DNA of 64,000 bases from the NCBI GenBank assembly GCA_002336805.1, contig DDEZ01000010.1, positions 74,895 to 138,894 of the forward strand. Direction: 5' to 3'. The stretch's first letter is position 1, and each line of letters starts with the position of its first letter. Source of the DNA: Bacteroidetes bacterium UBA1941 (GTDB lineage: Bacteria; Bacteroidota; Bacteroidia; Chitinophagales; LD1). Both the position numbers and the translations under genes were made by a program. Below the pieces are notes generated by a model. It searched no databases. It was not told the origin of the DNA and saw only the letters and a program-made list of their open reading frames with translations. Below, piece by piece: positions 6,730 through 57,437 of the stretch.

Positions 6730-6835
6730 AGCAGGTGAGCGGAAGTGAAGTGCAATAATATCGACTTATCCTGATTAATCAGTACGGCCTCATGTTCATT
6801 TAAGTTAGCTACTATAAAATATCGGCGAAAGGATG

Positions 6836-8482: not shown

Positions 8483-8562
8483 GCGATGGGGATTGATGGC
8501 TAATATATCGACATTGAGCTAATTGATTTGTCCGGTCGCTGAGATTATAGCACATTTGGCAG

Positions 8563-10509: not shown

Positions 10510-10517
10510 AGAGGATA

Positions 10518-11381: not shown

Positions 11382-11431
11382 AGGATATGAAGGTAGCCTT
11401 TATCTGTCAGATCCAGGAAAAAGCTGTGGTG

Positions 11432-12250: not shown

Positions 12251-12254
12251 CAGA

Positions 12255-13145: not shown

Positions 13146-13262
13146 ACAGGATTGTGTTTAACCAAAAATACCCTTTCGCAGTGTGCGAAAACGTTAAATT
13201 TCAACAAGTCACGGCAATTAATTCACATGTGTCAGGGATTTGTCATTTTAACGTTGAACCAT

Positions 13263-13292
13263 TTGTTTAGGCTATTTATATGATTAGATTTG
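13263..13292 (+). promoter_or_regulatory. Bacteroidota-type promoter (TTG-N19-TAgaTTTG) for the M43 protease gene
   Basis: TTG at 13263-13265, a 19-nt spacer, and TAGATTTG at 13285-13292. It lies 34 nt upstream of the GTG start at 13327. Confidence 0.45.
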
Positions 13293-13326
13293 TTATCGTT
13301 TTATTATCATTTAAAAACCGAAAAAG

Positions 13327-15498
13327 GTGAAAAATATCTTTACTTCTCTCGTCGTATTCATGGCGGGCGTATCTATGGCTACAGCTCAGACCCAGGGGTT
13401 CAGCTGTACTGCCGGTGAGGAGACTCAGAAACAATACGCAAAGCATCCCGAGCTATTGGTAGCAAAGGAACAGCTGGACGCATTCACAAGGGACTATGTG
13501 CGCCAGCAGCAGCTGCGCAGGGCCTCCGGCCAGCGTGTGGTAAATGACTCTACCAAGATCATACCTGTTGTGTTTCACATACAGCACGATGCCGGTGTAG
13601 AGAATATCTCCGACCAGACTGTGTACACAGAGATGGCTCACTGGAATGAGTACATGCAGGCGCGTAACCCTGAGCTGTCTACCACTGATTCCACATTCAT
13701 ACCACTGATCGGTAATCCTAATATCGAATTCCGCCTGGCGCAGATAGACCCTAACGGTAATCCTACCAACGGTATAGAGCGTATATATACGCAGTCTACC
13801 TATCTGGGCAATAACAATACTAAGCTCGATCCATGGCCACGTGACAAATACCTGAACGTGTGGCTGACAAAGGGTATCGATAAAGATGTGACCTTCTACG
13901 GTACACTGGCCTACTCGATGTATCCTTCTTCTGTAGCTACTTATACCAATAATGATATCATAGACGGTATCCTGGCTAAGTACTTTGTGGTAGGAGCCAA
14001 TGCACAATTCAGCCGTCCGACACTGGCGCACGAGTGCGGTCACTGGATGAACCTCGCGCACACATGGGGCAATACCAATGCGCCTGAGATAGACTGTGGT
14101 GATGACGATGTGGACGATACCCCTATCACCAAGGGTAACCAGAATACCTGTATCCACTACCTGAAAGTGTGCAACCCACCTATCATAGAGAATGAGCAGA
14201 ACATCATGAACTATGCTGACTGCCACTTCATGTTCACACAGGGTCAGGTAGATCGTATGAATGCTGCACTGGGTTCTTCTACAGCCGGACGTTCTAATAT
14301 CTGGACTGCGGCTAACCTGGCTGCTACCGGTACTACTGACTCACTGGTATATCCTAATCCAAACTCAGTGGCAGTGCCAGTAGCTGATTTTGCGGTAAAT
14401 AACAGGCTGGCCTGCGCCGGCGGCACTCCGGTGACCCTGACCGATGTATCATGGAATGCCGAGATCACCAGCCGCAACTGGACACTCCCTGCAGGTGCTG
14501 CATTTGAGAATGGCACTACGGCCAGCGATGCTGTGGTGAAAGTTTCATTTAGCAATGCCGGCTGGCAGCCTATCAGCCTGACTGTGACCAATGCAAATGG
14601 CAGCAATACCAAGACCAAGTCTATGGTTTATGTATCAGATGGCTTCCCGGTAGCTACACCTTACTTTGAAGGCTTTGAGGACGGTAATGTGGCTCAAAAC
14701 AAATGGCAGCCTCTCAACTATGACAATAACAATACATCTTTCTCCTATCTGACCGGTACCGGTCACTATAGCAATGCATGCTACAAGATGAATATGTACA
14801 ATGCTACCTACGATGGAGACCGTGATGACCTCATGTCTCCTATGTTTGATCTGAGTGGTATCGATATCAGCCAGCAGACACTGGAGTTTGACTACTCATG
14901 GGCTACCAATGATGCCAATCACATGAGCGACTCTATAGCTACCATAGCTGTATATGCTACGAAGGACTGCGGCAGCACCTGGACCCGTATATACTACAAT
15001 CTGGGAGGCTACAACATGTACAATGCCGGTACAATAGCAAATCGCGCCTATGTACCTGGCCAGACCGACGAATACTGGAGGCATATCACTATCAACCTGC
15101 CACAGGCGTTCGTAGGTCAGCAGGCTGTCAACTTCAAGTGGTCTGTGACAAGTGCGAAGGGGGCTAACCACTTCTATATAGACAACATCAATCTGGGTCA
15201 GGACCCATCTGGTGTATCTGCTGTGGCTGCTAATACAGTAGGCTCTATCAATATCATTCCTAACCCATCTAACGGTGGTATGGCGACCCTGGCTATGGAT
15301 ATAGCAAACGCCTCTGAGAATACAACTGCAAAGCTGTATGATATGGAAGGCCGTGAGGTGATGACCATATTCTCTGGTGAGACTCAGGCCGGTCAGAAGA
15401 ACGTGAAGTTTAATACAGCGAATATATCTAACGGCGTATACCTGGTAAAGGTATCTGATGGCAAGACATCAGTGCAGAAGCGCTTTGTGAAGATGTAA
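13327..15498 (+). CDS. M43 (pappalysin/cytophagalysin-like) zinc metalloprotease with T9SS C-terminal sorting domain
   Basis: HECGHWMNLAHTWG (HExxHxxGxxH, codons from 14029). Signal peptide. The C-terminal IIPNPSNGGMATLAMD...GVYLVKVSDGKTSVQKRFVKM is a Por secretion tail. GTG start. Confidence 0.85.
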   Translation: MKNIFTSLVVFMAGVSMATAQTQGFSCTAGEETQKQYAKHPELLVAKEQLDAFTRDYVRQQQLRRASGQRVVNDSTKIIPVVFHIQHDAGVENISDQTVYTEMAHWNEYMQARNPELSTTDSTFIPLIGNPNIEFRLAQIDPNGNPTNGIERIYTQSTYLGNNNTKLDPWPRDKYLNVWLTKGIDKDVTFYGTLAYSMYPSSVATYTNNDIIDGILAKYFVVGANAQFSRPTLAHECGHWMNLAHTWGNTNAPEIDCGDDDVDDTPITKGNQNTCIHYLKVCNPPIIENEQNIMNYADCHFMFTQGQVDRMNAALGSSTAGRSNIWTAANLAATGTTDSLVYPNPNSVAVPVADFAVNNRLACAGGTPVTLTDVSWNAEITSRNWTLPAGAAFENGTTASDAVVKVSFSNAGWQPISLTVTNANGSNTKTKSMVYVSDGFPVATPYFEGFEDGNVAQNKWQPLNYDNNNTSFSYLTGTGHYSNACYKMNMYNATYDGDRDDLMSPMFDLSGIDISQQTLEFDYSWATNDANHMSDSIATIAVYATKDCGSTWTRIYYNLGGYNMYNAGTIANRAYVPGQTDEYWRHITINLPQAFVGQQAVNFKWSVTSAKGANHFYIDNINLGQDPSGVSAVAANTVGSINIIPNPSNGGMATLAMDIANASENTTAKLYDMEGREVMTIFSGETQAGQKNVKFNTANISNGVYLVKVSDGKTSVQKRFVKM

Positions 15499-15629: not shown

Positions 15630-17033
15630 TTACATTGTCAGAGACCTATTGTCCGTAGCGGCGAGACAGGCTTCTTTGAAGGCCTCTGTGTAAGTAGGGT
15701 GCGGGTGGCTCATGCGGCTGATGTCCTCTGCCGATGCGCGGAACTCCATAGCTACTACACCCTCTATGATCAGGTCAGCGATACGCGGTCCGATCATATG
15801 CACACCGAGTATCTCATCGGTTTCCTTATCCGCTAGTATTTTGACAAAGCCATCTGTATCGCCGGAGGCACGGGCACGGCCTGATGCTTTGAAGCTGACC
15901 TTGCCTGTCTTGTACGCTTTGCCCTGAGACTTGAGGTCCTGCTCGGTAGCTCCTACGCTGGCAGCCTCCGGCCAGGTGTAGCACACACCAGGGATCAGGT
16001 TATAGTTGATGTGTGGCTTCTGGCCGGCTATGATCTCTGCTGCCAGCACGCCTTCCTCTTCTGCCTTGTGGGCCAGCATGGCACCGCGCACTACGTCACC
16101 TATGGCGTATACGCCCGGCACCGATGTCTCGAGGTGGTCATTGACCGGTATGCGCTTGCGCTCATCGAGGGTGATGCCGATATTCTCCAGGCCGAGACCC
16201 TGCGTGTATGGACTGCGACCTACCGCTACTAGGCAGTAGTCACCCTTGATCTCGATAGCTTCGCCTGCTTTATTGTCTGCGGTTACATTTACTTCTTTAC
16301 CTTTCACGGTAGCTCCTTTCACCTTGGTAGAGAGCATGAACTCCATCCCATCTTTCTTGAGCACACGGAGCAGCTCACGGCTCAGGTCTTCATCCATAGA
16401 CGGAGCTACCTTGTCCAGAAACTCTACCACTGTGACCTTAGAGCCCAGCCTGTGGTATACCGAGCCCAGCTCCAAACCTATAATGCCGGCACCGATGATG
16501 ATGAGGTTCTTTGGGATCTCTGTAAGGGAGAGCGCCTCTGTAGAGGTGATGATGCGCTTCTTATCTATGGGGAGGAAAGGTAGCGCGGTAGGCTTAGAGC
16601 CTGTAGCGATGATCACTTTCTCCGTTTCTATCTCCTGCTTTTCGCCAGCCTTGTTAGTGATGGCGATCTTGTTTTTGGTCACAAATGAGCCGAGGCCGTT
16701 GTATACGTCTACCTTGTTCTTCTTCATGAGGAAGGCGATGCCATCTACGTTAGCCTTCACCACTTCGCCTTTGCGCGCGATCATGCGGCCAAAGTCTACA
16801 GTGAGTCCTTTGACACCGATACCGAAGTCTGTAAAGCGCTTCTCTGCATTGTGGTAGTGCTCAGATACATCGAGCAGCGCCTTGGATGGGATACAGCCCA
16901 CATTGAGGCAGGTGCCTCCCAGTACATCGTATTTTTCGATTATAGCGACCTTCATGCCGAGCTGTGCCAGGCGTATAGCTGCTACGTAACCTCCGGGACC
17001 GCCACCTATCACGGTGACATTATAATTAGACAT
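15630..17033 (-). CDS. lpdA: dihydrolipoyl dehydrogenase (E3)
   Basis: VIGGGPGGYVAAIRLAQLG, the redox-active GGTCLNVGCIPSK, and the C-terminal HPHPTYTEA. Confidence 0.95.
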   Translation of the reverse strand: MSNYNVTVIGGGPGGYVAAIRLAQLGMKVAIIEKYDVLGGTCLNVGCIPSKALLDVSEHYHNAEKRFTDFGIGVKGLTVDFGRMIARKGEVVKANVDGIAFLMKKNKVDVYNGLGSFVTKNKIAITNKAGEKQEIETEKVIIATGSKPTALPFLPIDKKRIITSTEALSLTEIPKNLIIIGAGIIGLELGSVYHRLGSKVTVVEFLDKVAPSMDEDLSRELLRVLKKDGMEFMLSTKVKGATVKGKEVNVTADNKAGEAIEIKGDYCLVAVGRSPYTQGLGLENIGITLDERKRIPVNDHLETSVPGVYAIGDVVRGAMLAHKAEEEGVLAAEIIAGQKPHINYNLIPGVCYTWPEAASVGATEQDLKSQGKAYKTGKVSFKASGRARASGDTDGFVKILADKETDEILGVHMIGPRIADLIIEGVVAMEFRASAEDISRMSHPHPTYTEAFKEACLAATDNRSLTM

Positions 17034-17131: not shown

Positions 17132-17995
17132 ATGAAACAGCTACTACTCCTCTGCATGCTAGCCTCTGGCATGGTGTCTGCCAGAGCACAAACCCTGCAA
17201 CCATCGTTGCGCCGCGATATCTACGATTTTGCGGTAGGAGATACTTTTGAGTATGCAGGTGAGACGTATCAGAATATGTGCTCGGTCAGCGTTTCTGATA
17301 TGATCATCGTGCTTTCCCGACAAAATACTGCTACATCTGTATCATATGGTGTAAAGGTAAACTCTACGTCCTCTCATCCGCCGTGCAACTCCCCGGGCTA
17401 CATCACTTCAGCTAGCATCTATGATACCCTACGCTATGGAGATCTGGATTCTACTATCTTTTACTATCATGATAGCCTGCTATACCACCGTGACTCAGTG
17501 CTGACGGATGTCGATACGATCTATCAGGATTCGGTCATGCAGTACAGGAAAGTAAATGTACACATATGGCGCTTTGGGGCCTGCTGCGCGGGAGATACAG
17601 CGTACGCCGATGGGCTAGGGTTGGTATTTGCCGGCTATGGCTCTGAGGACTATACGGTGAGCCAGGGCGGCTATGGAATGGTGTACTACCACAAGGCTAA
17701 TGGTGATGTGTGGGGCACGGCGCGGTATTTCACAGTAGGTGTGGAGGATGTGACTGAGGAGCAGCCCGCACTATATCCCAATCCAAGCAACGGAAGTATC
17801 ACACTGCGGATGGATGATAACAGGAGAGGAGGTGTGCTCACAATGTACGATATCAGTGGCAGGATGCTGATGAGGCAGCAGATCGGAGATGACAATAGTA
17901 CTTTTGACCTGCTGTGGGCTGACGGGTACTATACCTATACTATAACGATGGCTGATGGAAAGTCTTCTACCAGCAAATTAGTGATACGCCGCTAA
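17132..17995 (+). CDS. hypothetical T9SS-secreted protein
   Basis: Signal peptide MKQLLLLCMLASGMVSARAQ. The C-terminal LYPNPSNGSITLRMD...GYYTYTITMADGKSSTSKLVIRR is a T9SS sorting domain. The N-terminal 200 aa have no motif I recognise. Confidence 0.7.
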   Translation: MKQLLLLCMLASGMVSARAQTLQPSLRRDIYDFAVGDTFEYAGETYQNMCSVSVSDMIIVLSRQNTATSVSYGVKVNSTSSHPPCNSPGYITSASIYDTLRYGDLDSTIFYYHDSLLYHRDSVLTDVDTIYQDSVMQYRKVNVHIWRFGACCAGDTAYADGLGLVFAGYGSEDYTVSQGGYGMVYYHKANGDVWGTARYFTVGVEDVTEEQPALYPNPSNGSITLRMDDNRRGGVLTMYDISGRMLMRQQIGDDNSTFDLLWADGYYTYTITMADGKSSTSKLVIRR

Positions 17996-18054: not shown

Positions 18055-19317
18055 CTATATCATCTCCAGTAGTAGGTCGATAGGATCTGCGCCGAGCAGC
18101 ATCTTGTCCGGATTCTCCAGGAAGTCCTTAATGGCTACGAGGAAGCCTACAGATTCCTTGCCATCTATGATACGGTGGTCGTATGATACGGCCAGGTACA
18201 TCATAGGGCGGATCTCTATCTTGCCGTCTATGACCATCGGGCGGTCCTGCACCTTGTGCATACCGAGGATAGCAGACTGCGGAGGATTGATGATCGGGGT
18301 GCTCATGAGAGAGCCAAACACGCCACCGTTGGAGATGGTAAATGTACCACCGGTCATATCATCCATAGTGAGCTGTCCGTCGCGGCCCTTGATAGCTAGT
18401 GATTTTACTGTTTTCTCTATATCAGCGAGGCTGAGTGATTCAGCATTGCGGATCACCGGCACTACGAGCCCCTTAGGTGTAGATACAGCGATGGAGATGT
18501 CACAATAGTCGTGGTACACAATATTGCCTTCATCGATGTAGGCATTTACAGCAGGATACTTCTCCAGTGCCAGGCAGACAGCCTTGGTAAAGAAGCTCAT
18601 CATGCCGAGGTTGACCTCATACTTCTTCTTAAACACATCGCCATACTTGGCGCGGATCTTATTGATATTGGTCATGTCCACCTCATTGAATGTGGTGAGC
18701 ATGGCTGTGCTATTCTTTGAGTATACGAGACGCTCAGCTACAGTTTTGCGCAGTCGGCTCATCTTCTCTACCCGCTCTCCGCGGCTAAATGCTTCTTTTT
18801 TGGCACCGCCAATAGAGGCTTTATTCTTGATCGCTTCCAGTGCATCCGCCTTGGTGATACGGCCGGATACGCCTGTTCCCTTTACATCTTTATTGGCTAC
18901 TCCGCCTTCATCCAGTATCTTCTGGGCTGCAGGTGGGGCAGCGCCTGTGGCATAGCTCGCCTTGGTCTCAGCTACTGGAGCTTTGGTTTCCGCCTTTGGT
19001 GCCTCTGCTTTTTTCTGAGGCGCTTCTGCTTTCTTTTCTTCTGCCTTAGGAGCTTCCGTTTTTGCTTCTTTGGCCGGTGCGGCTGCGCTCTCATCTATAG
19101 TCGCTACGAGCGCACCTACTTTCAGGTCATCGCCTTCGCTGGCTACAAGTTTCACCTTGCCGGCGGCAGGAGAGGGGAGCTCCTGAGAGGCTTTGTCTGT
19201 CTCTACCTCACAGATAGGCTGGTCCAGCTCTACATAGTCGCCGTCCTTTACCAGAAATTTAGAAAGAGTAACCTCGGTGATCGATTCCGCTACCGCGGGG
19301 ATTTTTAATTCAGCCAT
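18055..19317 (-). CDS. sucB: dihydrolipoyllysine-residue succinyltransferase (E2 of 2-oxoglutarate dehydrogenase)
   Basis: Lipoyl domain [19 protein letters not shown], an Ala/Pro/Lys linker, and the catalytic C-terminus [19 protein letters not shown]. Confidence 0.95.
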
Positions 19318-19342
19318 TGTTTCTTTTAAGCTTTTGCGGGAG

Positions 19343-19372
19343 CAAAAATAGGATTAATATGAATAAGGGCAA
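19343..19372 (-). promoter_or_regulatory. Bacteroidota-type promoter for sucB (TTG-N19-TAttTTTG)
   Basis: The minus strand reads ctgTTGcccttattcatattaatccTATTTTTG. TTG at 19372-19370, an exact 19-nt spacer, and the -7 box at 19350-19343, 25 nt upstream of the sucB ATG. Confidence 0.5.
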
Positions 19373-19392
19373 CAGTGTTTTGCGCCATGCGC

Positions 19393-20796
19393 CTACAGAC
19401 TGTACTCCATATTGCCCACCAGGTAGATATACTCGAAGTAAGTACGGAGGAATTTGAGCCTGTATTCGGCCAGTTTTAGCTCTGTCTCGAGTAGTTTGCT
19501 CTCCCGTGTATTGATCAGGAATAGGCTACTTTCGCCATGCTCGTATTTCAGCTTTTCGGCATCCAGCAGCAGCTGGCTGTATTTAGCATTTGTCTCAGCA
19601 TTCTGGATCTGCTCTTTGAGCAGGTCGAGGTTTTGCTCAGTGAGAGACACTTTTTGAGATATCTCGTTTTTTTTGTTTTGGAGCTCCTGCTGATTATTGG
19701 TGCGCTCCAGGCGGGCTACCTGATAGTCGCTGCGGGAGGTACGCAGGAGCAGCGGCATGGTGAAATTGACCGCCACGCGATAGTTGCTGATATCGGCCAC
19801 GGTGCTGCCGGCAGCATTGGTATTAAACAGAAAATTGTACTTGACATCCAGTTTGGGCTTGATGAGTTCTGCTTTGTAGCGGAGGTCAGCTTTCAGGATG
19901 TTGTCTGTCGTCTCATACTTTGTGATGAGTGGATTGCTGTTACCGGTCCCTTTGGCCTTGTAGCCCCAGGCTAGCAGCGCTTTGTAGCAATAGTACTCCA
20001 GGCTGTCTTTCACACGGTTTTCGCCGATCGTATTCATGGGGCCCTCACTGCTCCAGTTTAGCATAGTAAGGGAGATAGACCTCTTCCTGTATTCCAGCTC
20101 GGCACCACGCAGGTCCAGGTCACGGCTTCTGTAAAGGATGCTGGCTTCTATCGTGTCAGCTATAGCCTTCTCACCGAGGTCGGCCAGGATCCTGATGCCG
20201 CTGTAGCGGTCCTGCGCCAGCTGCAGAAAGTAGCGCTGTATGCTGATCTCCCGATTGGAATACAGCCAATCGAAATAGGTCAGAGAGGCATTGTACATAA
20301 GGTCGTTCAGCAGGATATTGCGGTCGGCCTCATAGTAGCTCCTGTAGCCTTTGGCTTTCACTAGCTCAGTCCGTCGCTTGTCTATGACGAGGCCCTGCAG
20401 CAGTGAGGCCTCTACTCCTATATATGGCAGTCCATAGGTCGCAGTTTTGAACTCGGGGTTGAGATAGTAGCCGGAGCCATACTCGTAGCCGGTAGTGATA
20501 TACTGAGAGGTATAGATGGGCTGCTTCAGCTTGGTGAGCAGGGTAGAGTAGTAGGTCTTGCTGTCAAAGTTCTTATTCTCATACTCTACGCTGACCAGCG
20601 GATCGTAGCCGCCCTGCGCTGATTTGAATAGCCAATCTCCCTTGGCCTTGATATTATTGGCCCGGACAGCGAGGGGATGGTAGGTCTTTACATTATTGAT
20701 AAAATCATTGTACTCTGGTATGCGCTGGGCAGAAACACCAGAGACTATAAGCCAGGCGACAAAGAGCAGGAGCTTATTTTTTCTTCTTGTCGTCAT
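19393..20796 (-). CDS. TolC-family outer membrane efflux protein
   Basis: Two-repeat coiled-coil / beta-barrel pattern. I prefer the ATG at 20796 (MTTRRKNKLLLFVAWLIVSGVSAQ gives a clean signal peptide). This start overlaps the upstream gene's stop by 23 nt. Confidence 0.8.
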   Translation of the reverse strand: MTTRRKNKLLLFVAWLIVSGVSAQRIPEYNDFINNVKTYHPLAVRANNIKAKGDWLFKSAQGGYDPLVSVEYENKNFDSKTYYSTLLTKLKQPIYTSQYITTGYEYGSGYYLNPEFKTATYGLPYIGVEASLLQGLVIDKRRTELVKAKGYRSYYEADRNILLNDLMYNASLTYFDWLYSNREISIQRYFLQLAQDRYSGIRILADLGEKAIADTIEASILYRSRDLDLRGAELEYRKRSISLTMLNWSSEGPMNTIGENRVKDSLEYYCYKALLAWGYKAKGTGNSNPLITKYETTDNILKADLRYKAELIKPKLDVKYNFLFNTNAAGSTVADISNYRVAVNFTMPLLLRTSRSDYQVARLERTNNQQELQNKKNEISQKVSLTEQNLDLLKEQIQNAETNAKYSQLLLDAEKLKYEHGESSLFLINTRESKLLETELKLAEYRLKFLRTYFEYIYLVGNMEYSL

Positions 20797-23059
20797 ATGT
20801 GGTAGTAGTGGTTGGTTTGTAAAAGTCAGGAGGGAATCCATTTACTTTTCTCCATATTTCGTATGCTAGCGGTACCTTGTTCAGCAGGGCAAATCCCTTG
20901 GCACCAGTACCTACGGACAGTACGTGCGGCCATTCCTGATCCCCACGGGCCACGAGTATCCTGAATTTGCCATTGGCAGAGATAGCCCTGTCTATAGCTA
21001 CTACGCGGCCAGTGTAGGTGCCCACACTCATACCCGGCCAGCCGGAAAAGACAAATGCCGGCCAGCCATCAAAAGTGATCTGCACACGCATATCTTTCTG
21101 TACGAGGGCCAGATCCATCGGGTCTATGTATAGCTCCACGGATAGATTTGGCGTCTGCGGTACAAAGCTGATGAGCGGCATACCTTCTTTCACTATATCT
21201 CCCACGCCCTGGACGAAGGTCTGGGTCACGTAGCCATCCTGAGGAGCAGTGACATAGTAGTATCCCGACCGGATGGTATAGCCTGTGAGCTGCCCCTGCA
21301 TCTTGGTCAGGGCAGCCTCTGCATCGTACATAGAGGATAGCGCGGAGAACTTGTCAGACTCAGCCTTGGTCATTTTCTCATTGTAGTCCTGCTGTATGGC
21401 ATTGATCTCTATGAGCAGATTGGTGATCTCGTTTTTGCTATTGATCCATTTGTTTTCTGCTGCTATGGTCTTGGCCTGGCTCTCCTGGAGTTTTGCCTTG
21501 CGTGACTCGAAGTCGGTGCGTGATATCACGCCTTTGGTCAGTAGCTCTTCGTACCGCTTGAACTGGTTTTGATTGATGTCATTATTCTGCTGGATAGAGA
21601 AGTACTCTATACTATCACTGGTTACCTTATTTCTCGCCTGCAGGAGTTTGTTTTTGGCCTGCTCCAGTTTGAGAGAGCGTGCCTGATTGAGCGCGTCAAG
21701 CTGCTGGTCTATGGCAGATACCTTCTGCTCGTATGAGCCGATGGTAGACTCTTTTGATTTGAGCTGGGACTCTACACGGCCTATGAGCTGCGGGTCAAAG
21801 TAATCGTCTTTGATCTCGGATATATATGCAATAGTATCGCCCTTCTTTAGTACTTCGCCCTCCTTTACAAACCACTTCTCTATACGGCCGGGTATACGGG
21901 AGGGGATGGTCTGAGGCTTGTCAGATGGGTTGAGGGTGGTTACTTTGCCTGTACTGGTCACGGTTTGGTTCCACGGCATGAGCAGGGTGAGGAAACCGAC
22001 TGCCAGCATAGTATAAAACAGGATACGTGTGACACGTGCATAGCGGTACTGGTATACGCTGTCATATACTTCCTTGCCCACGTTAGGGTCAGGAGTGGTG
22101 AGCAGGTAGTTTAGCATACCATCATGGCCCAGCGCCTGGTCGAGCTTTTCTATGGAGGTGAGTACGTCGTATACAGTATCGAGGCTGGTGATGAGTTTCT
22201 CCACCCCGTTTATAATAAGGATGACAAGTATCTCAGAGGCTACGAACTGGCCGATATTGATGTAGCCCTGCTGTACCAGCCATATACCGAGGAAAAGTAA
22301 TAGGGCAGTAAATACAATCTTAAAGATGAAAATACTCCTGTACTGCAGGTCTAACACCTGAAAGTGCTGACTCTTGTAGCGAATGTATTTCACGAGAGAA
22401 GCATCGGCAGCTTTTGTCGGTTCGTCTCCCGTTTTCAACCCATCCTGCGCTGCATCAAATACCTGATGGAGTTTGTCTACGAACTTGTACTTTTCCTTAG
22501 ACTCCGATAGGCTGGTATCCATAGCATTCCTGCCGGTGAGGCGGATGATGATGAAGAAGATAAGGGCTGTAACGATCGTGAATATGATAAAGACAGGATT
22601 GTAAAGACTGAGCAGGATAAAGCCAAAAAAAATGCTGATCAGTGCATAAGAGAGCTCCATCAGGATCTTTGACAAACCTTTCTGGAGGGTGAGTGTGTCG
22701 AAAAAATAGTTGATGTGATTATCCGTCCGGGTAGCACGCTCGTGATCCTGGCGGAGGCGGGAGAGTTTCTGCGAAAAACCAATACCAATACGGGCTACAA
22801 TATGCTGCTGAAGGGTTTCATTGGCGCGCATCTTCCACATCTGGAAAAGGCCCATGAATATCACAGCCAGGATAGTCAGGATGCTGAGCAGTACCAGCGA
22901 GGCTGACATCTGGCCCGCCATGGTATAGGTGACCACTGCCTGGATACCTAGCGGTACAGTCAGATAAAAGACACCCTGCAGGATAGCGAGTATGTAAATA
23001 ACTCTGACCTGTGGGTAGAGAGGTTTGAGGAAGCGTAGTAATTTTTTGATCGAGTGCAT
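20774..23059 (-). CDS. fusion protein: ABC type-1 exporter transmembrane domain (no nucleotide-binding domain) + HlyD-family periplasmic adaptor
   Basis: Start taken at ATG 23059 (MHSIKKLLRFLKPLYPQ...). Residues ~1-330 carry six hydrophobic helices and the ABC_membrane pattern (LLRFLKP...ILAILQGVFYLTVPLGIQAVV...LQQHIVARIGIGFSQKLSRL). After a further TM (ILFYTMLAVGFLTLLMPW) come the HlyD barrel-sandwich (IPGRIEKWFVKEGEVLKKGDTIAYI), a long Q/K/E coiled coil and VTAPQDGYVTQ. There is no Walker A or LSGGQ anywhere. Confidence 0.8.
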   Translation of the reverse strand: MHSIKKLLRFLKPLYPQVRVIYILAILQGVFYLTVPLGIQAVVTYTMAGQMSASLVLLSILTILAVIFMGLFQMWKMRANETLQQHIVARIGIGFSQKLSRLRQDHERATRTDNHINYFFDTLTLQKGLSKILMELSYALISIFFGFILLSLYNPVFIIFTIVTALIFFIIIRLTGRNAMDTSLSESKEKYKFVDKLHQVFDAAQDGLKTGDEPTKAADASLVKYIRYKSQHFQVLDLQYRSIFIFKIVFTALLLFLGIWLVQQGYINIGQFVASEILVILIINGVEKLITSLDTVYDVLTSIEKLDQALGHDGMLNYLLTTPDPNVGKEVYDSVYQYRYARVTRILFYTMLAVGFLTLLMPWNQTVTSTGKVTTLNPSDKPQTIPSRIPGRIEKWFVKEGEVLKKGDTIAYISEIKDDYFDPQLIGRVESQLKSKESTIGSYEQKVSAIDQQLDALNQARSLKLEQAKNKLLQARNKVTSDSIEYFSIQQNNDINQNQFKRYEELLTKGVISRTDFESRKAKLQESQAKTIAAENKWINSKNEITNLLIEINAIQQDYNEKMTKAESDKFSALSSMYDAEAALTKMQGQLTGYTIRSGYYYVTAPQDGYVTQTFVQGVGDIVKEGMPLISFVPQTPNLSVELYIDPMDLALVQKDMRVQITFDGWPAFVFSGWPGMSVGTYTGRVVAIDRAISANGKFRILVARGDQEWPHVLSVGTGAKGFALLNKVPLAYEIWRKVNGFPPDFYKPTTTTTYDDKKKK

Positions 23060-23169
23060 ATTGTGGATAGGTTTCCAAATATGCGGCCCAAAGCGCACAA
23101 GTCTCTGCGAGGTTTAATGTATGGGGCCGATTTTAACAGAAATTACGACCCAAACGATGTCAGGTAAAC

Positions 23170-25896
23170 TTATTCAAAGGATTTAGAAAGTATCTCATCC
23201 TGCTCCTTCACGTGCTGCTTCTTGAAACCTGTCGCTGGTGAGGCTGAGTTTTTACGAGCTATGACGCGCAGTTTCATCTTGTCATACAGGCCACTCTCGT
23301 AGAGTCTGCTCAGCAGGAATGTCCATGCGCCATTATTCTTAGGCTCCTCCTGTACCCAGACGAATTCTGCCTTAGGATATTTCGCGGTGAGTGCCTCCAG
23401 CTGGGTGTACGGCAGCGGGTAGAGCTGCTCCATACGTACCACGGCTACATCCTTCACGCCGTCTTTTTCTTGTTTTTCCAGCAGCTCATAGTAGATCTTG
23501 CCGGTGCAGAGTACTACGCGGCGTACCTTCTTGCCGTCTTTGAACTGTGGATCGTCCAGCACCTCCTGGAAACCACCTTTAGTCACATTCTCCAGCGGAG
23601 AGATGGCGCGCGGGTGGCGGAGGAGCGACTTAGGGCTCATGACCACGAGTGGCTTGCGAAACTCCCAGGCGAGCTGACGGCGCAGTGCGTGGAAGTAGTT
23701 GGCCGGATCAGTGATGTTTACCACCACCATATTCAGCTCAGCGCAGAGTTGGAGGTAGCGCTCCAGGCGGGCTGAGGAGTGCTCAGGGCCTTCGCCCTCA
23801 TAGCCGTGAGGGAGCAGCATGACCAGGCCGCTCTTGCGCTGCCATTTGGTCTCGCCGGAGGCCACGAACTGGTCTGTGATGATCTGCGCACCATTGCTAA
23901 AGTCTCCATACTGCGCCTCCCAGATCACGAGTGGATCAGGGTGCGTGATAGAGTAGCCATACTCAAAGCCGAGTACACCATACTCACTCAGGTGTGAGTT
24001 ATAGATAAAGAACTTACTCTTGTCAGATTCGAGCGGAGAGAGGCGGCTGTATTCGCGCTCGGTATTGATATCAGTGATCACAGCATGGCGGTGTGTGAAA
24101 GTACCACGCTTCACGTCTTCGCCGCTGAGGCGTACGTTTTTGCCATCCAGCAGGATGCTGCCGTAGGCCATCAGCTCGGCTGCAGCCCAGTCTACGATCT
24201 TATTGGTCACCAGTTTGTCCTTGCGGTCCTCTATGTGCTTCTGCACTTGGCGGAGCGGTGTGAGGTCTGCAGGTATGGTGGTGAGCGCATCGATCAGTTT
24301 ATCGAGATTGCCCTTGCTGATGCCGGTATCAGGAGACTTTTCAAAGTCCTTGCTGGTAGCTGAGCGGAGAGTCTGCCATGCAGTCTCCGTAGACTGCGGC
24401 TGGTATGGAGGTGGGTTTTCCTTCACGGCATCCAGACGCGCCTGAAGGTCTGCCCAAAATTCTTTCTCCAGCCTCTTGGCCATATCATCAGTGATAGAGC
24501 CTTCTTTTTCCAGTTTGCTGATATAGATATCGCGTGGATTGGTATGCGCGTCTATCAGCTTGTACATCATAGGCTGGGTAAACTTAGGCTCATCACTCTC
24601 ATTGTGGCCCCACTTGCGGTAGCACACCATGTCTATGAAGATATCCTTGTTGAATTTCTGCCTGTACTCTGCTGCTATCTCTGCAGCATATACTACCGCC
24701 TCTACATCATCGCCATTCACATGCAGTACGGGAGCCTCGATGGTGGCAGCGATAGAGCTGCAATAATCAGACGAGCGGCCATCTTCAAAGTCTGTCGTAA
24801 AGCCTATCTGGTTATTGATCACATAGTGCAGCGTGCCGCCTGTGTAGTAGCCCGGCAGCTTGGCCATCTGGAGTACCTCATAGATGATGCCCTGGCCTGC
24901 CACAGCTGCGTCACCGTGGATGAGGATAGGCATGATCTTGTCATAATCTGAATTGTATATCGCATCAGACTTGGCACGTACGAAACCTTCTACCACAGGG
25001 TTTACCGCCTCAAGGTGTGATGGGTTAGGGATCAGCTTGAGGTAAACTGATTTATTGCTATCTGTAGGGTACTGGTGTGAGTAGCCGAGGTGGTATTTCA
25101 CATCACCATCGCCCAGAGAGATATCGTAGAGCGCAGTACCCTGAAACTCGTTGAAGATCTCTTCATAGGTCTTGCCCATGATGTTGGCCAGGATATTGAG
25201 GCGGCCGCGGTGTGCCATGCCTATCACGATCTCCTCCACATTGCCCTCGGCAGCAGTATGTATCACCGCATCGAGGCCCGGTATGGTAGACTCGCCACCC
25301 TCCAGGGAGAAGCGCTTCTGTCCGATATATTTTGTACCGAGGAATTTCTCAAATACGACCGCCTGATTGAGCTTTCTCAATATGCGCTCTTTCTTCTGTA
25401 CGCTGTATTTGATCGCGTCCAGCTTTTCTATCTTCTCGCGGAAGTAGGCGATCTCTTCCTTCACACGTACGTAGCCGTACTCAAAGCCTATCGGGCCGCA
25501 GTACACAGCCTCCAGCCGAGCGACGATATCGCGCAGGGTGGCATTGGCCAGGCCGAGCTCAGAGCCGATGGCAAATTTCTTGTCAAGGTCCTTGTCCGTG
25601 AGGCCAAAGTCGCTCAGTTCCAGGTCTGGATGGCGGTCCATACGCGGGCGTATAGGATTGGTCACAGCCTTGAGGTGGCCCTTATTGCGATAGGCTGCGA
25701 TGAGGGCGTATACCTTAAACTCATCTGCAGATACGCTGCCTCCCGGCTTGCCATTATAGCTAGTGGATGCGAGGTCAAAACCTTCAAAAAACTTCTTAAA
25801 CTCCGGGTCTACTGATTCTGGTTTGCTTTTGAAATCCCTATAGAGATTTTCCAGGTACTCGGGCGTAGCGTTGCTGAGATATGAGTAATTATCCAT
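23170..25896 (-). CDS. sucA: 2-oxoglutarate dehydrogenase E1 component
   Basis: 908 aa. MDNYSYLSNATPEYLENLYRDFK..., the ThDP-binding region IHGDAAVAGQGIIYE, and LLPHGYEGEGPEHSSARLERYLQL. Confidence 0.95.
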   Translation of the reverse strand: MDNYSYLSNATPEYLENLYRDFKSKPESVDPEFKKFFEGFDLASTSYNGKPGGSVSADEFKVYALIAAYRNKGHLKAVTNPIRPRMDRHPDLELSDFGLTDKDLDKKFAIGSELGLANATLRDIVARLEAVYCGPIGFEYGYVRVKEEIAYFREKIEKLDAIKYSVQKKERILRKLNQAVVFEKFLGTKYIGQKRFSLEGGESTIPGLDAVIHTAAEGNVEEIVIGMAHRGRLNILANIMGKTYEEIFNEFQGTALYDISLGDGDVKYHLGYSHQYPTDSNKSVYLKLIPNPSHLEAVNPVVEGFVRAKSDAIYNSDYDKIMPILIHGDAAVAGQGIIYEVLQMAKLPGYYTGGTLHYVINNQIGFTTDFEDGRSSDYCSSIAATIEAPVLHVNGDDVEAVVYAAEIAAEYRQKFNKDIFIDMVCYRKWGHNESDEPKFTQPMMYKLIDAHTNPRDIYISKLEKEGSITDDMAKRLEKEFWADLQARLDAVKENPPPYQPQSTETAWQTLRSATSKDFEKSPDTGISKGNLDKLIDALTTIPADLTPLRQVQKHIEDRKDKLVTNKIVDWAAAELMAYGSILLDGKNVRLSGEDVKRGTFTHRHAVITDINTEREYSRLSPLESDKSKFFIYNSHLSEYGVLGFEYGYSITHPDPLVIWEAQYGDFSNGAQIITDQFVASGETKWQRKSGLVMLLPHGYEGEGPEHSSARLERYLQLCAELNMVVVNITDPANYFHALRRQLAWEFRKPLVVMSPKSLLRHPRAISPLENVTKGGFQEVLDDPQFKDGKKVRRVVLCTGKIYYELLEKQEKDGVKDVAVVRMEQLYPLPYTQLEALTAKYPKAEFVWVQEEPKNNGAWTFLLSRLYESGLYDKMKLRVIARKNSASPATGFKKQHVKEQDEILSKSFE

Positions 25897-26110: not shown

Positions 26111-27991
26111 ATGAATAGAATTTTTACGCTCATCGCATGCTGCGCTGTAGCTGCTATGGCCTATGGACAAAATAGTCACTTGCTACCCTCGCGCCCGCTG
26201 GTAGATAGTGCGCTGGCTCCTTTTTTTCATGGAGTAGCCTCAGGAGACCCGCTGGCGGACAGGATCATACTATGGACACGTGTCACTACCGATGATCCTA
26301 CAGTATCTGTAGACTGGCAGATAGCCACCGATACCGCTTTTGCCAATGTAGTGACCTCCGGCACTGTCACGACCGATACATCAAAGGATAATACTGTCAA
26401 AGTAGACGCCACAGGCCTCAGCCCTGCTACATGGTACTACTACAGGTTTACAGCCTATGGCAAGCACTCGTCTACAGGCCGTACGCGCACTGCGCCATCC
26501 GGCAATACAGACAGCCTCCGCTTTGCTGTCGTAGCCTGCTCTAATTTTCAGGCAGGATTCTTTAATGTTTACCAAAGTATAGGTACCCGCAATGATATAG
26601 ATGCCGTACTGCACCTGGGCGACTACTACTATGAGTACAAAGCCAGGGGCTATGGCTACACCGGAGATAGTACCCGTCTGCATGATCCCGGTGACCATGA
26701 TGCCCAAACGCTGGCAGACTACCGTATGCGCCACTCTCAGTACAAACTGGACCCGGACCTGCGGCTATGCCATCAGCAGTACCCCTTTATCACGATCTGG
26801 GATGACCATGAGACTGCCAACGACTCCTACCTGCTGGGTGCAGAAAACCATGATCCTGCTACAGAGGGCGACTGGTTTACACGCAAGGATGCCGGCAAGA
26901 AGGCATATTTTGAGTGGATGCCTATACGCGAGGTGTCGACCAATAATGATACAACCGTGCGTCGCACAGAGAAGTGGGGTGACCTGATCGACTTCATCAT
27001 GCTGGATACCCGCTATGAGGGCAGGGACTCTACGCTGGGTACATTTATACCTGATACAGTGTCCTACGTGACTGATACCAACCGCCAGCTGCTGGGCAGG
27101 CCACAGCTACAGTGGTTTAAAGGAGAGCTCAGTGCCTCTACAGCCAGGTGGCGCATCATAGGCAATCAGGTCATGATAGCCCCTCTCACCACCTATCCCG
27201 GTGTACGTACCATAGTGAATGGTGACCAGTGGGACGGGTACCCGGCCGAGCGCAAGCGTGTGCTGGACCATATCATGCAGAATCAGATCAATAATGTGGT
27301 ATTCATCACAGGAGATATACATACCTCATGGGGCAATGATGTACCTCACCCGGACTCTACGTATGACCTGGCTACAGGCCACGGCTCAGTGGCTACTGAG
27401 TTTGTGACCACCAGTATCACTTCTCCCAGCAATGGGCTGGACATCATACCTGTAGGCGCCGTACAAAATTTCAACCCGCACATGAAGTATGTAGAGCTGC
27501 TGAAGCGCGGCTACCTGCTGCTGGATGTAAATAAACAGCGTGTACAGGGTGACTGGCTGCATGTCAATACTGTCACCAGCCACAACTTCACAGTGACTGA
27601 CGATGGCTACTGGATGAATATGAATGGAGAGCGATTCCTGCGCCTGGCGGCGGGACCGCTGGGACCGCGTCCGGGCAACCCACCACTGCTGCCATATACT
27701 ATCGTGACCGGTATAAAGAATGTGGCCAATAACCTCATCGTAATGGGCTGCTATCCAAACCCGGCAGAAAACGAGGTAGCCATACAGTACTATCTCTCTG
27801 AGCCGGCCAAAGTGACCATAGCCATCACAGATATGAGCGGCAAAACAGTATACACCCGCGAAGAGCAGCAAACCCAATACGGCCTGTATAGTGGCAAGGA
27901 ATACATAGACAATCTGGCCGCAGGTAGCTATGTGGTGAGCATCACCGCCGGTGGCAAAACCTACAGCAAGCAGCTGGTAAAAGCTAAATAA
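26111..27991 (+). CDS. phoD: alkaline phosphatase D with T9SS C-terminal sorting domain (tandem copy A)
   Basis: FFHGVASGDPLADRIILWTRV (PhoD_N), LHLGDYYYEY, ITIWDDHETAND, VVFITGDIHTSW, and the tail CYPNPAENEVAIQYYL...GSYVVSITAGGKTYSKQLVKAK. Confidence 0.9.
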   Translation: MNRIFTLIACCAVAAMAYGQNSHLLPSRPLVDSALAPFFHGVASGDPLADRIILWTRVTTDDPTVSVDWQIATDTAFANVVTSGTVTTDTSKDNTVKVDATGLSPATWYYYRFTAYGKHSSTGRTRTAPSGNTDSLRFAVVACSNFQAGFFNVYQSIGTRNDIDAVLHLGDYYYEYKARGYGYTGDSTRLHDPGDHDAQTLADYRMRHSQYKLDPDLRLCHQQYPFITIWDDHETANDSYLLGAENHDPATEGDWFTRKDAGKKAYFEWMPIREVSTNNDTTVRRTEKWGDLIDFIMLDTRYEGRDSTLGTFIPDTVSYVTDTNRQLLGRPQLQWFKGELSASTARWRIIGNQVMIAPLTTYPGVRTIVNGDQWDGYPAERKRVLDHIMQNQINNVVFITGDIHTSWGNDVPHPDSTYDLATGHGSVATEFVTTSITSPSNGLDIIPVGAVQNFNPHMKYVELLKRGYLLLDVNKQRVQGDWLHVNTVTSHNFTVTDDGYWMNMNGERFLRLAAGPLGPRPGNPPLLPYTIVTGIKNVANNLIVMGCYPNPAENEVAIQYYLSEPAKVTIAITDMSGKTVYTREEQQTQYGLYSGKEYIDNLAAGSYVVSITAGGKTYSKQLVKAK

Positions 27992-28032: not shown

Positions 28033-29907
28033 ATGAACAAGATCGCACTGATACTGATGTGCATGGTAGCTGCCATAGGCCTGCAGGCACAAAGCTACCT
28101 GCTCCCATCACGCCCGCATGTAGATAGCACGCTGGCACCCTTCTTTCACGGTGTAGCCTCCGGTGATCCGCTGGCTGACCGCGTGATACTCTGGACGCGT
28201 GTCACCACTGATGACAACTCTGTGAGTGTAGACTGGCAGATAGCCACTGATACGGCCTTTGCCAATGTAGTAGGCTCCGGTACCGTGAGTACCGATACCT
28301 CACGAGATCATACAGTGAAAGTGGATGCCACCGGCCTCACAGCAGGCAGCTGGTACTACTATCGCTTCAAGGCGTATAACAGGTACTCCGCCACAGGCCG
28401 CACGCGCACCGCACCGGTAGGCAATACCGACAGCCTGCGTTTTGCGGTCATAGCCTGCTCCAATTTCCAAGCGGGGTTCTTTAACGTGTATCATGATATA
28501 GCAACGCGCAACGATATTGACGCGGTACTGCACCTGGGCGACTACTACTATGAGTATGAGGGACAGGGCTACGGATATGATGGTGATACCAACCGTATAC
28601 ATGACCCTGACCACGAGGCGCTGACACTGGCAGACTACCGCATGCGCCACTCTCAGTACAAGCTGGACGCAGATCTGAGGTACTGTCACCAGCAGTATCC
28701 ATTCATCACCATCTGGGATGACCATGAGACAGCCAATGACTCCTACTATAGTGGCGCTCAAAACCATACTCCATCTACTGAGGGTGACTGGTTTACGCGC
28801 AAGGATGCAGGCAAGCGTGCCTACTTTGAGTGGCTGCCTATCCGTGAGATATCGGCGGGCAATGATACGATCCTGCATCGTACAGAGCACTGGGGCGACC
28901 TGCTGGACCTGATCATGATAGATACCCGCTACGAGGGCCGCGATTCATCCCTGGGCCAGTTTATCCCAGCCAGCAATGCATTTCTCTCAGATACGGGCCG
29001 CCACCTGATAGGCAATGAGCAGCTCACATGGTTTAAAGGAGAGCTGGATAACTCTGCCGCCAGATGGAAGGTGATAGGCAACCAGGTAATGATAGCGCCG
29101 CTACACGTCAATGTAGGCACAGGAGATCAGGTGCTAAACGGCGACCAGTGGGATGGCTATCCGGCTGAGCGCAAGCGTGTACTGGATCACATCATGCAGA
29201 ATAACATTAAGGATGTGGTCTTCCTGACTGGTGATATCCACTGCTCATGGGGCAATGATATTCCTCATCCGGATTCTACATACAATCAGTCCACAGGCCG
29301 TGGATCGGCAGCTACAGAGTTTGTATGTACGAGTGTGACATCACCTACATTCAACGGTCTCGGCTCGGTGCCACTATCACTGATACAGGTTTTTGACAAG
29401 CATGTGAAGTATGCAGAGCTGAGCAAGCGCGGCTACCTGCTGCTGGATGTAAACAAGGTGCGTGTACAGGGCGACTGGATACATATGAGCACAGTGACCA
29501 GCAAGACCTACACACCGACGGATGATGCACAGTGGATGAACCTGGATGGTGAGCGCTTCCTGCGCCAGGCACCATCTGTACTCGGACCTCGTCCGGGCAA
29601 TCCACCGCTGACTCCATTTATCACAGGTATAGGAGAAGTGGCCAACAACATCCTCATACTCGGTATGTATCCTAACCCTGCCGAGAACGAAGTGGCTATC
29701 CAGTACTACCTCTCAGAGCCATCTAAGGTAGATGTGACCATCACGGACATGAGCGGACGCAATGTGTACACACATACCACGCAGCAGACCCAGTATGGCT
29801 TGTACAATACCAAGGCCTTTATAGACGGCCTGGCTGCAGGCAGCTACGTAGTGAGCATCTCTGCCAACGGAAAAACATACAGCAAGCAGATCGTAAAGGG
29901 TAAGTAA
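28033..29907 (+). CDS. phoD: alkaline phosphatase D with T9SS C-terminal sorting domain (tandem copy B)
   Basis: Collinear with copy A over the full length, with the same catalytic blocks and T9SS tail. A 41-nt spacer separates the copies. Confidence 0.9.
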   Translation: MNKIALILMCMVAAIGLQAQSYLLPSRPHVDSTLAPFFHGVASGDPLADRVILWTRVTTDDNSVSVDWQIATDTAFANVVGSGTVSTDTSRDHTVKVDATGLTAGSWYYYRFKAYNRYSATGRTRTAPVGNTDSLRFAVIACSNFQAGFFNVYHDIATRNDIDAVLHLGDYYYEYEGQGYGYDGDTNRIHDPDHEALTLADYRMRHSQYKLDADLRYCHQQYPFITIWDDHETANDSYYSGAQNHTPSTEGDWFTRKDAGKRAYFEWLPIREISAGNDTILHRTEHWGDLLDLIMIDTRYEGRDSSLGQFIPASNAFLSDTGRHLIGNEQLTWFKGELDNSAARWKVIGNQVMIAPLHVNVGTGDQVLNGDQWDGYPAERKRVLDHIMQNNIKDVVFLTGDIHCSWGNDIPHPDSTYNQSTGRGSAATEFVCTSVTSPTFNGLGSVPLSLIQVFDKHVKYAELSKRGYLLLDVNKVRVQGDWIHMSTVTSKTYTPTDDAQWMNLDGERFLRQAPSVLGPRPGNPPLTPFITGIGEVANNILILGMYPNPAENEVAIQYYLSEPSKVDVTITDMSGRNVYTHTTQQTQYGLYNTKAFIDGLAAGSYVVSISANGKTYSKQIVKGK

Positions 29908-57304: not shown

Positions 57305-57437
57305 GCCATCATAGACGTACGAGGCTCAATTTTATGTCAAAGGTGTATTTTTTTCTTTAGTTTCAAAGTGCGGGCAAGATGCCAACAGTGCCGGACAATA
57401 TAGAACCAACCACTGCGTTTTAGCAAAAATTTGATCT

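Follow-up and report, generated by a model that had tools for sequence, protein, structure and literature searches.

Several described systems share parts with the locus presented here. In the haemolysin exporter of Escherichia coli, HlyB-HlyD-TolC, a type IV ATP-binding cassette (ABC) membrane domain is combined with a TolC-type channel and with a HlyD adaptor that has a transmembrane (TM) anchor, a long hairpin and an RLS/RLT tip. Its transporter and adaptor chains occur in a 1:1 ratio, with six HlyD molecules bound by three HlyB dimers (PMC11026475). The tripartite multidrug pump EmrAB-TolC has an adaptor with a long hairpin and an N-terminal TM anchor; its inner-membrane partner belongs to the major facilitator superfamily (MFS) and is driven by the proton motive force, and the pump serves small-molecule efflux under a repressor. 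ABC exporter membrane domains have also been studied after removal of the nucleotide-binding domain (NBD): MsbA-MD supports pH-gradient-dependent transport of ethidium and chloramphenicol (PMC4979069), and the LmrA membrane domain is a secondary-active translocator that requires a glutamate, E314, in the sixth TM helix (TM6; PMC6155054). Here we analyzed a 64,000-nucleotide (nt) stretch of Bacteroidetes bacterium UBA1941 (contig DDEZ01000010.1, positions 74,895 to 138,894; hereafter the window), in which one gene encodes an NBD-less ABC exporter membrane domain continuous with a HlyD-type adaptor and overlaps a gene for a TolC-like outer membrane factor (OMF).

The fusion goes back to a Bacteroidota family of (TetR)-ABC-HlyD-TolC operons with already degenerate NBDs, from which the NBD was lost in frame; in this architecture and evolutionary origin we place high confidence. 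An earlier description of the window, made by a model from the DNA letters without database searches (the sequence-only reading), had not seen this descent, which is the key to interpretation. What the system does is a more tentative matter. From the sequence patterns described below we favor, with slightly less than even confidence, an ATP-independent and probably ion-gradient-driven tripartite efflux pump.

An ABC membrane domain joined to a HlyD-type adaptor

The fusion gene occupies 20774..23059 on the reverse strand, which also carries all other features of the system given below in window coordinates. It encodes 761 amino acids (aa) from its ATG; an alternative GTG start at 23098 would give 774 aa. 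The sequence-only reading had assigned the system to 19393-23059, a span that does cover both genes but is wider than the 761-aa open reading frame (ORF) alone. Its description of that ORF as a six-helix ABC membrane domain plus a complete HlyD module was borne out by Pfam, NCBIfam, AlphaFold2 (AF2) and Foldseek. Pfam identified ABC_membrane, Biotin_lipoyl_2, HlyD_3 and HlyD_D23, the first at 29 bits against a gathering score of 28, and found no ABC_tran match anywhere in the protein; the profile check suggested earlier for domain borders and NBD absence thereby came out as anticipated. In NCBIfam, residues 5-310 covered only the membrane-domain positions (approximately 143-450) of HlyB, PrtD, NHLM and PCAT-type ABC models, and residues 383-700 matched the type_I_hlyD (1.8e-25) and EmrA models; all of these scores lie below the curated cut-offs (208 bits for type_I_hlyD), those of the type I secretion system (T1SS) models far below. 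A profile of the membrane domain matched the ComA membrane domain across 291 positions (2.7e-7). This match needed the profile, as EmrA (4tko, 2e-8) was the sole match of a single-sequence PDB search with the fusion.

The AF2 model of the full-length protein (predicted local distance difference test, pLDDT, 74) begins with six helices of 45-53 residues each (2-47, 53-102, 106-153, 157-205, 212-264 and 269-313), lengths that indicate TM segments prolonged into the cytoplasm, as is typical of type IV ABC exporters. These helices make up an HlyB/PCAT-like type IV membrane domain that keeps its cytoplasmic extensions (residues 1-313, 22121..23059). It is followed by a variable cytoplasmic linker (residues 314-339, 22043..22120) which, in alignments, takes the position of the NBD and of the ABC/HlyD gene boundary in unfused relatives. 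The seventh TM helix of the AF2 model (residues 340-360, 21980..22042) aligns with the N-terminal TM helix of unfused HlyD proteins, and is predicted to anchor the adaptor and lead the chain into the periplasm. The rest of the protein is a periplasmic HlyD/EmrA-type adaptor (residues 361-761, 20777..21979), modelled with lipoyl and beta-barrel elements and a long alpha-hairpin whose two arms have approximately 85 residues each. An 'RLS' motif, RxxxLxxxxxxS, was read directly at the hairpin tip (RYEELLTKGVIS, residues 502-513, 21521..21556). R502, L506 and S513 do not vary among 45 fused homologues, and AF2 places the hairpin turn at residues 509-513. The same motif forms the tip by which MacA, AcrA and HlyD contact TolC (PMC3391258).

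Foldseek searches with the full-length model returned adaptor matches only (EmrA, EmrAB-TolC, MacA and HlyD); a separate model and search were therefore made for the membrane domain. The model of residues 1-335 (pLDDT 76; predicted template modelling score, pTM, 0.65) matched PCAT1, HlyB, TmrAB and MsbA over approximately 320 residues with template modelling scores (TM-scores) of 0.65-0.78, including 0.74 for HlyB from the HlyB/D complex (8dck, root-mean-square deviation 4.1) and 0.76-0.78 for TmrAB and MsbA. The best sequence and fold match of the adaptor was EmrA (4tko, 1.7e-17 in Foldseek; also 8zar). SbmA was not among the top 50 Foldseek matches of the membrane domain. SbmA/BacA is, like the fusion, a natural ABC_membrane-clan protein, and its working form is a dimer of two membrane domains with no NBD; unlike the fusion, it imports peptides, is neither fused nor tripartite and belongs to another Pfam family (SbmA_BacA).

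A six-frame scan of the whole 64 kb revealed no strict Walker A motif (GxxGxGK[ST]) in any frame of at least 100 aa. Its one signature-like match stands in a frame without any P-loop, and two loose P-loop matches (57435-58148 and 63214-63999), both lacking a signature motif, are more than 30 kb away from the fusion. Together with Pfam and NCBIfam, the scan revealed no hidden NBD in the ORF, its neighbors or other frames of the window, and agrees with the earlier statement that Walker A, LSGGQ and Walker B are all missing from the ORF and adjacent genes.

The TolC-like gene (19393..20796) encodes 467 aa from an internal ATG at 20796, within an open frame that spans 19393..20841, and matches OEP in two stretches (Pfam, 9.8e-24). 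As had been reported, it starts 23 nt inside the 3' end of the fusion (overlap 20774..20796; fusion TAA at 20774-20776). Among fused loci from other genomes the overlap is 23 nt in L007 and L008 and 26 nt in L001, and there is none in L004. A TolC-like ortholog stands directly downstream in every fused or split locus long enough to show it.

The system is organised like HlyB-HlyD-TolC but lacks the feature that defines both ABC transporters and T1SSs, an ATP-hydrolysing NBD. As in a tripartite pump, three components are encoded together and the adaptor has an OMF-docking motif. Of the parts of an ABC transporter, the type IV six-helix membrane domain is present, and an NBD with Walker A, LSGGQ, Walker B and H-loop is absent from the protein, the window and the surroundings of the fused relatives; of those of a T1SS, the HlyD adaptor (TM anchor, hairpin and RLS tip) and the TolC-family factor are present, and an ATP-hydrolysing ABC protein is absent. 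Unlike HlyB-HlyD-TolC, the fusion has neither an NBD nor a C39-like domain, carries transporter and adaptor on one polypeptide, has no RTX or other substrate gene nearby and has relatives regulated by TetR. Unlike EmrAB-TolC, its inner-membrane part has an ABC exporter fold instead of an MFS fold and is joined to the adaptor.

We also considered whether the fusion might be an artefact or a decaying pseudogene, produced by mis-assembly, a frameshift or a recent inactivating deletion. A protein search returned 4254 matches, the best 120 of which are all 717-781 aa long with 91-100% query coverage and 48-97% identity, and represent independent full-length clusters from NCBI, JGI, ENA and Logan assemblies. 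Their architecture is unchanged at 97%, 89% and 48-66% identity. Against L007, which is 97% identical, synonymous divergence (dS) was 0.58-0.90 and the nonsynonymous to synonymous ratio (dN/dS) was 0.018 for membrane domain and adaptor alike; against L008, dN/dS was 0.028 for the membrane domain and 0.024 for the adaptor. The low dN/dS of the membrane domain indicates a selected, working part of the fusion protein. When a first neighbour-joining tree was built from membrane domain and adaptor together, its 122 fused and 72 split sequences separated into two clean clades. One fused locus, from the metagenome-assembled genome Aved_18 (L010, 10001-13708), does show a broken copy, with both the fusion and the TolC-like gene fragmented into several ORFs; this could reflect long-read assembly frameshifts or a decaying copy. 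Against the at least 120 full-length homologues from four data sources and a dN/dS of approximately 0.02, however, an assembly or frameshift origin is ruled out as an explanation of the family, its remaining probability being negligible, and the assembly join that had been suspected near 22000-22150 proved unfounded. The only names given to the fused homologues are 'HlyD family efflux transporter periplasmic adaptor subunit' or 'multidrug resistance efflux pump'.

Descent from operons with degenerate NBDs

Most relatives in the GTDB genome collection matched over approximately 2970 nt, not approximately 2280 nt. We took 80 loci from reference genomes and classified 86 loci with phmmer. Fused, NBD-less loci (the window and L001-L010) have the gene order fusion, TolC-like; split loci (L011-L086, 74 of them with an ABC ORF comprising membrane domain and NBD) have the order ABC, HlyD, TolC-like. 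Flavobacterium anhuiense provides an example (L047), in which an ABC protein of 577 aa with its NBD (locus positions 9923-11656) is followed by a HlyD protein of 450 aa (11659-13011) and then by the TolC-like gene. Split operons of the form (TetR)-ABC-HlyD-TolC occur in Flavobacteriales and Cytophagales, including Flavobacterium, Crocinitomicaceae and Chryseobacterium. The fusion junction coincides exactly with the NBD and gene boundary of the split forms, and the two clean clades of the first tree are consistent with the NBD having been deleted once, at the base of the window's clade.

The NBDs of the split loci were aligned to NBD1 of P-glycoprotein (P-gp). Three catalytic motifs were degenerate throughout: the canonical LSGGQ signature was found in 0/74 loci (replaced by LSASD, LSSSN, LPKSI, LDRQL, LNRSM and others), the Asp-Glu pair of the Walker B motif hhhhDE in 0/74 (replaced by ED, WDT, KD or EN) and the H-loop histidine in 0/74 (Ser or another residue instead). 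In one such alignment, LSASDVQK stands opposite LSGGQKQR of P-gp, and ILFLEDP opposite ILLLDEA. Walker A (GxxGxGK[ST]) is kept in Flavobacterium and Cytophagales and destroyed in a Crocinitomicaceae-like group (DFKGNQAQG, DPEGHRSQS). A further split example with a degenerate NBD is L034 (9959-11593). An exhaustive search of 1.84 billion cluster representatives (50%-identity clusters) gave the same picture: among the 55 closest representatives with membrane domain and NBD, none had LSGGQ (0/55), none combined the Walker B Asp-Glu with the H-loop histidine (0/55) and many had no Walker A. Among split relatives, pairwise identity falls from 61% in HlyD and 58% in the membrane domain to 31% in the NBD. 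An NBD that is the least conserved domain is the reverse of what is seen in normal ABC transporters.

Since all three degenerate motifs stand on a single operon-encoded chain, a canonical composite site could form neither in a homodimer nor in combination with a canonical partner. The degenerate-site exporters TM287/288, TmrAB and TAP also have a substituted Walker B glutamate, H-loop histidine and signature, but in these heterodimers one site stays canonical and catalytic; a homodimer of the split relatives, with signature, Walker B and H-loop all degenerate on each chain and Walker A missing in one group, would have no competent site. Judged by these motifs, the NBDs of the split relatives are catalytically dead in 74/74 loci and 55/55 representatives, and the routine annotation of these proteins as ATP-driven ABC exporters is probably wrong. 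The non-catalytic NBDs of the sister lineages imply that the ancestral system was independent of hydrolysis.

NBD-less fusions are not confined to the window's clade. The sequence-only reading had called for a survey of other Bacteroidota; beyond the at least 120 full-length homologues, the best 150 representatives include 26 NBD-less membrane domain-HlyD fusions of 517-928 aa, some with shorter hairpins and three with a 145-180-aa N-terminal extension. Per-domain neighbour-joining trees placed fusions in at least three separate groups. The first consists of the window clade with P0121, the second of P0130 and P0137 (the P0130 cluster includes Cryomorphaceae proteins), and the third is a large, distant group with a triple fusion nested inside it. 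This triple fusion (P0154; WP_169977254.1 of Tautonia rosea, Planctomycetota; 1202 aa) carries an N-terminal extension, an ABC membrane domain, an NBD and HlyD on one chain; its NBD is degenerate as well, with the signature LSDGQ, the Walker B IIDQ and no H-loop histidine, and the protein may represent an intermediate of a 'fuse first, delete later' route. The trees suggest that the NBD was lost repeatedly, possibly with fusion first and deletion afterwards. In the distant fusions P0150 and P0168 an overlapping OEP gene comes next and no NBD gene lies nearby. The N-terminal extension of 145-180 aa, seen in P0150, P0156 and P0160 (885-928 aa) and at L087 (8001-10787), takes the position of the C39 peptidase of PCAT proteins and the C39-like domain of HlyB. 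These extensions have no Pfam match, Peptidase_C39 included, and were rejected as C39 peptidases.

Within our literature coverage, which leaves out most subscription journals, we found neither the fusion nor the operon family with degenerate NBDs described. The 300,000 characters examined of a review of tripartite pumps (PMC8277102) mention no transporter-adaptor fusion.

Constraint on the membrane domain and a proposed mechanism

Column-by-column comparison of non-redundant membrane domains (41 fused, 10 split) revealed fused/split conservation ratios of 0.96-1.20 in the membrane-embedded segments. The tips of the two intracellular loops, by comparison, are relaxed in the fused clade. Pairwise column identity at the tip of loop 1 (coupling-helix-1 region, residues 96-114, 22718..22774) was 0.20 in fused versus 0.49 in split forms, and at the tip of loop 2 (coupling-helix-2 region, residues 196-222, 22394..22474) it was 0.19 versus 0.44. 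Loop length followed the same trend: the span Q85..N117 of loop 1 varies from 27 to 32 residues in fused forms and is a constant 32 in split forms, and the span Y191..Y225 of loop 2 varies from 22 to 38 residues compared with a constant 36. The split consensus of loop 2, 'WLEEIAR..SFK', aligns with the ComA stretch 'iiEdinGietiK'. In type IV exporters the NBD docks on these loop tips, the coupling helices. Their conservation in split forms indicates that the membrane domain there still engages the dead NBD structurally; the loss of this conservation, confined to fused forms, indicates that nothing docks at the tips.

These data bear on the possibility, raised by the sequence-only reading, that an NBD from another locus, either stand-alone or borrowed, docks on the membrane domain and drives an ordinary ABC cycle. 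In its favor is only the retention of the cytoplasmic extensions by the six long helices. The search for NBD genes covered the 64-kb window and approximately 10 kb around the fused loci L001-L010 and L087-L089; within that scope no NBD gene was found. The relaxed, indel-bearing docking tips argue against an ATPase acting in trans, as do the non-catalytic cis NBDs of the sister lineages, and we know of no type IV exporter with separately encoded NBDs. We regard this explanation as very improbable.

The membrane core is under strong constraint. Position 276 in TM6 (motif GQFVA[SA]EI; E276 codon 22232..22234) is Glu in 94/95 and Asp in 1/95 fused and split sequences from all groups, the counterpart in the canonical PCAT ComA being Asn. 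As constant across the 95 sequences are E81, K127, Y153, S187, K190, G258, G270 and K305, and TM3 has Asp or Glu at position 135 in most sequences. E276 is a candidate ion-coupling residue.

A second possibility raised earlier was a non-energised scaffold or sensor. The membrane domain would then only anchor and oligomerise the adaptor, or gate or sense, and the system would form a passive or periplasm-loading duct, perhaps with another inner-membrane pump. In its favor, there is no recognisable energy module in the fusion gene or nearby, and the system was retained as its NBD decayed and was repeatedly lost. L004 also has an MMPL/RND-superfamily gene (RND, resistance-nodulation-division; 6833-9178) just past a divergent TetR gene. 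This neighbor is missing at L001-L003, the window, L087 and L089, however, and was rejected as the true pump since it is not conserved in other fused loci. The six helices retain pairwise identities of 0.46-0.77, equal to those of unfused relatives, which would not be expected of a mere anchor; the membrane glutamate and the polar residues Q40, E81, K127, Y153 and K190 are kept across very distant groups; and the adaptor has its own predicted TM anchor. An ungated duct coupled to TolC would also be a leak. The scaffold explanation is weakened by these observations and appears unlikely, though clearly less so than a trans-acting ATPase.

Of the possibilities first offered, a new architecture of tripartite exporter gained most, with support from a conserved family, strong purifying selection and a TolC-like neighbor throughout. 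We propose, with the caution of a reading that falls just short of an even chance, that the fusion and the TolC-like protein form a two-gene, envelope-spanning system in which the fusion supplies the inner-membrane and periplasmic parts. By analogy with HlyB/HlyD, six fused chains would provide three membrane-domain dimers beneath a hexameric adaptor funnel, and the RLS hairpin tips of the funnel would contact a TolC-like trimer in a 6:6:3 assembly; the 1:1 chain ratio of HlyB and HlyD is compatible with a covalent fusion of the two. Transport would proceed without ATP hydrolysis by a dedicated NBD, the membrane-domain dimer acting as a secondary-active translocator on a proton or other ion gradient with E276 as the putative coupling site. 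SbmA, which dispenses with an NBD, is one precedent; MsbA-MD and LmrA-MD, the others, are likewise NBD-less ABC exporter membrane domains, and LmrA E314 and E276 of the family are both TM6 glutamates; unlike the fusion they are laboratory truncations of working ATPases, and debated, whereas the fusion is natural, ancient, selected and coupled to an adaptor and an outer-membrane channel.

The substrate would probably be a small molecule, because most relatives are under TetR control and the adaptor is EmrA-like. A TetR gene adjoins most loci, including the fused loci L001-L006, L009 and L010 and many split loci, and is missing at the window, L007, L008 and a Flavobacterium johnsoniae-like group. 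Peptide or protein secretion, by a T1SS-like or bacteriocin exporter with a drive other than a cis NBD and a substrate gene elsewhere, would account for other features. By sequence, the membrane domain and the unfused ABC proteins are closest to T1SS and peptide exporters (LssB, HlyB, PrtD, NHLM and PCAT/ComA), the adaptor matches type_I_hlyD, and some distant fusions have an extension at the position of the PCAT peptidase. Those extensions, however, lack a Peptidase_C39 match, the adaptor is structurally closest to EmrA, which belongs to a drug pump, and TetR control is typical of small-molecule efflux. In line with the sequence-only reading, which saw no obvious substrate gene, none adjoins the pair, which in the window is flanked by sucA and sucB; no small-peptide, RTX or other substrate-like gene was noticed in the listed relative loci, which were not searched systematically, unlinked genes being outside the scope. 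To our knowledge, threading of an unfolded polypeptide without ATP has no precedent. Secretion is thus improbable, ranking below the scaffold and above a trans-acting ATPase.

Several points weigh against an ion-driven pump. That truncated ABC exporters carry out secondary-active transport is a view held by a minority in the field. The energy source has been deduced from sequence, and a conserved glutamate is no proof of ion coupling; E276 is likened to LmrA E314 by its location in TM6, the hexameric assembly is extrapolated from HlyB/D, and what is known of the family comes from sequences and predicted models. Many unfused relatives have an intact Walker A, and ATP binding may still matter there. 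The neighbour-joining trees carry no support values, so that the number of independent losses is approximate. The window lineage has no TetR gene, and its pair lies inside sucAB.

A wider proposal, which we hold more loosely than the pump itself, is that a large, mostly Bacteroidota radiation of HlyB-like exporters gave up ATP hydrolysis. The NBD would first have become a non-catalytic appendage and then been deleted several times independently, leaving an ion-driven TolC-type pump, with its ABC-fold membrane domain joined 1:1 to the adaptor, that works through the TM6 glutamate, with a related NBD-bearing triple fusion in Planctomycetota. The family displays graded steps along such a path (catalytic motifs lost, Walker A lost, NBD deleted, docking loops relaxed) with a membrane core that is still strongly selected. 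If the pump proposal is true, this would be the first natural ABC-fold exporter to work as a secondary transporter and would represent a fourth energisation class of tripartite pumps beside ABC, RND and MFS. The question of secondary-active ABC membrane domains has so far rested on the LmrA and MsbA laboratory truncations, of which the family looks like a natural version, and it offers E276, E81, K127 and K190 as mutational targets. Tripartite efflux pumps, of which this one may have a new mode of inner-membrane energisation, matter for the intrinsic resistance of environmental as well as host-associated Bacteroidota to drugs and metabolites. The covalent 1:1 fusion also supports the 6:6 stoichiometry of HlyB/HlyD and could suit cryo-electron microscopy of the whole assembly.

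Locus context and neighboring genes

In the window the pair stands between sucA and sucB, the four genes lying on one strand (18055-25896). Upstream, sucA (2-oxoglutarate dehydrogenase E1, 23170..25896, reverse strand; Pfam E1_dh, Transket_pyr and OxoGdeHyase_C) is separated from the fusion by 110 nt, or by 71 nt from the GTG start. Downstream, sucB (E2 succinyltransferase, 18055..19317, reverse strand; Pfam 2-oxoacid_dh, Biotin_lipoyl and E3_binding) follows the TolC-like gene after a gap of 75 nt. L008 (89% identity) has ORFs of matching sizes at 7161-15000 in an order identical to that of sucA, the pair and sucB in the window. No terminator-like site was found in the sucA-fusion or TolC-like-sucB gap of the window. 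A scan for sigma-70 promoters and terminators around the genes gave counts as in shuffled sequences and was thus uninformative, Bacteroidota promoters lying outside the models of the tool. This arrangement suggests that in the window lineage the pair may be co-transcribed with the 2-oxoglutarate dehydrogenase genes of the tricarboxylic acid cycle.

Other genes of the window were also recorded. Two forward-strand genes encode proteins with a type IX secretion system (T9SS) C-terminal sorting domain: a Peptidase_M43 (pappalysin-like) protein at 13327-15498 and a small protein at 17132-17995, the latter between lpd (15630-17033, reverse strand) and sucB and on the strand opposite to both. Tandem, highly similar genes for PhoD-like phosphatases of 626 and 624 aa lie at 26111-27991 and 28033-29907 (forward strand). 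Both phosphatases carry a type IX secretion C-terminal sorting domain, and the pair looks like a recent duplication of a secreted phosphatase. Finally, a bacterial alpha-2-macroglobulin of 1799 aa (MG2, bMG3/5/6/10 and A2M bait region) is encoded at 38870-44269 (forward strand); that L001 and L002 have a similar gene close to their fused systems is probably coincidental.

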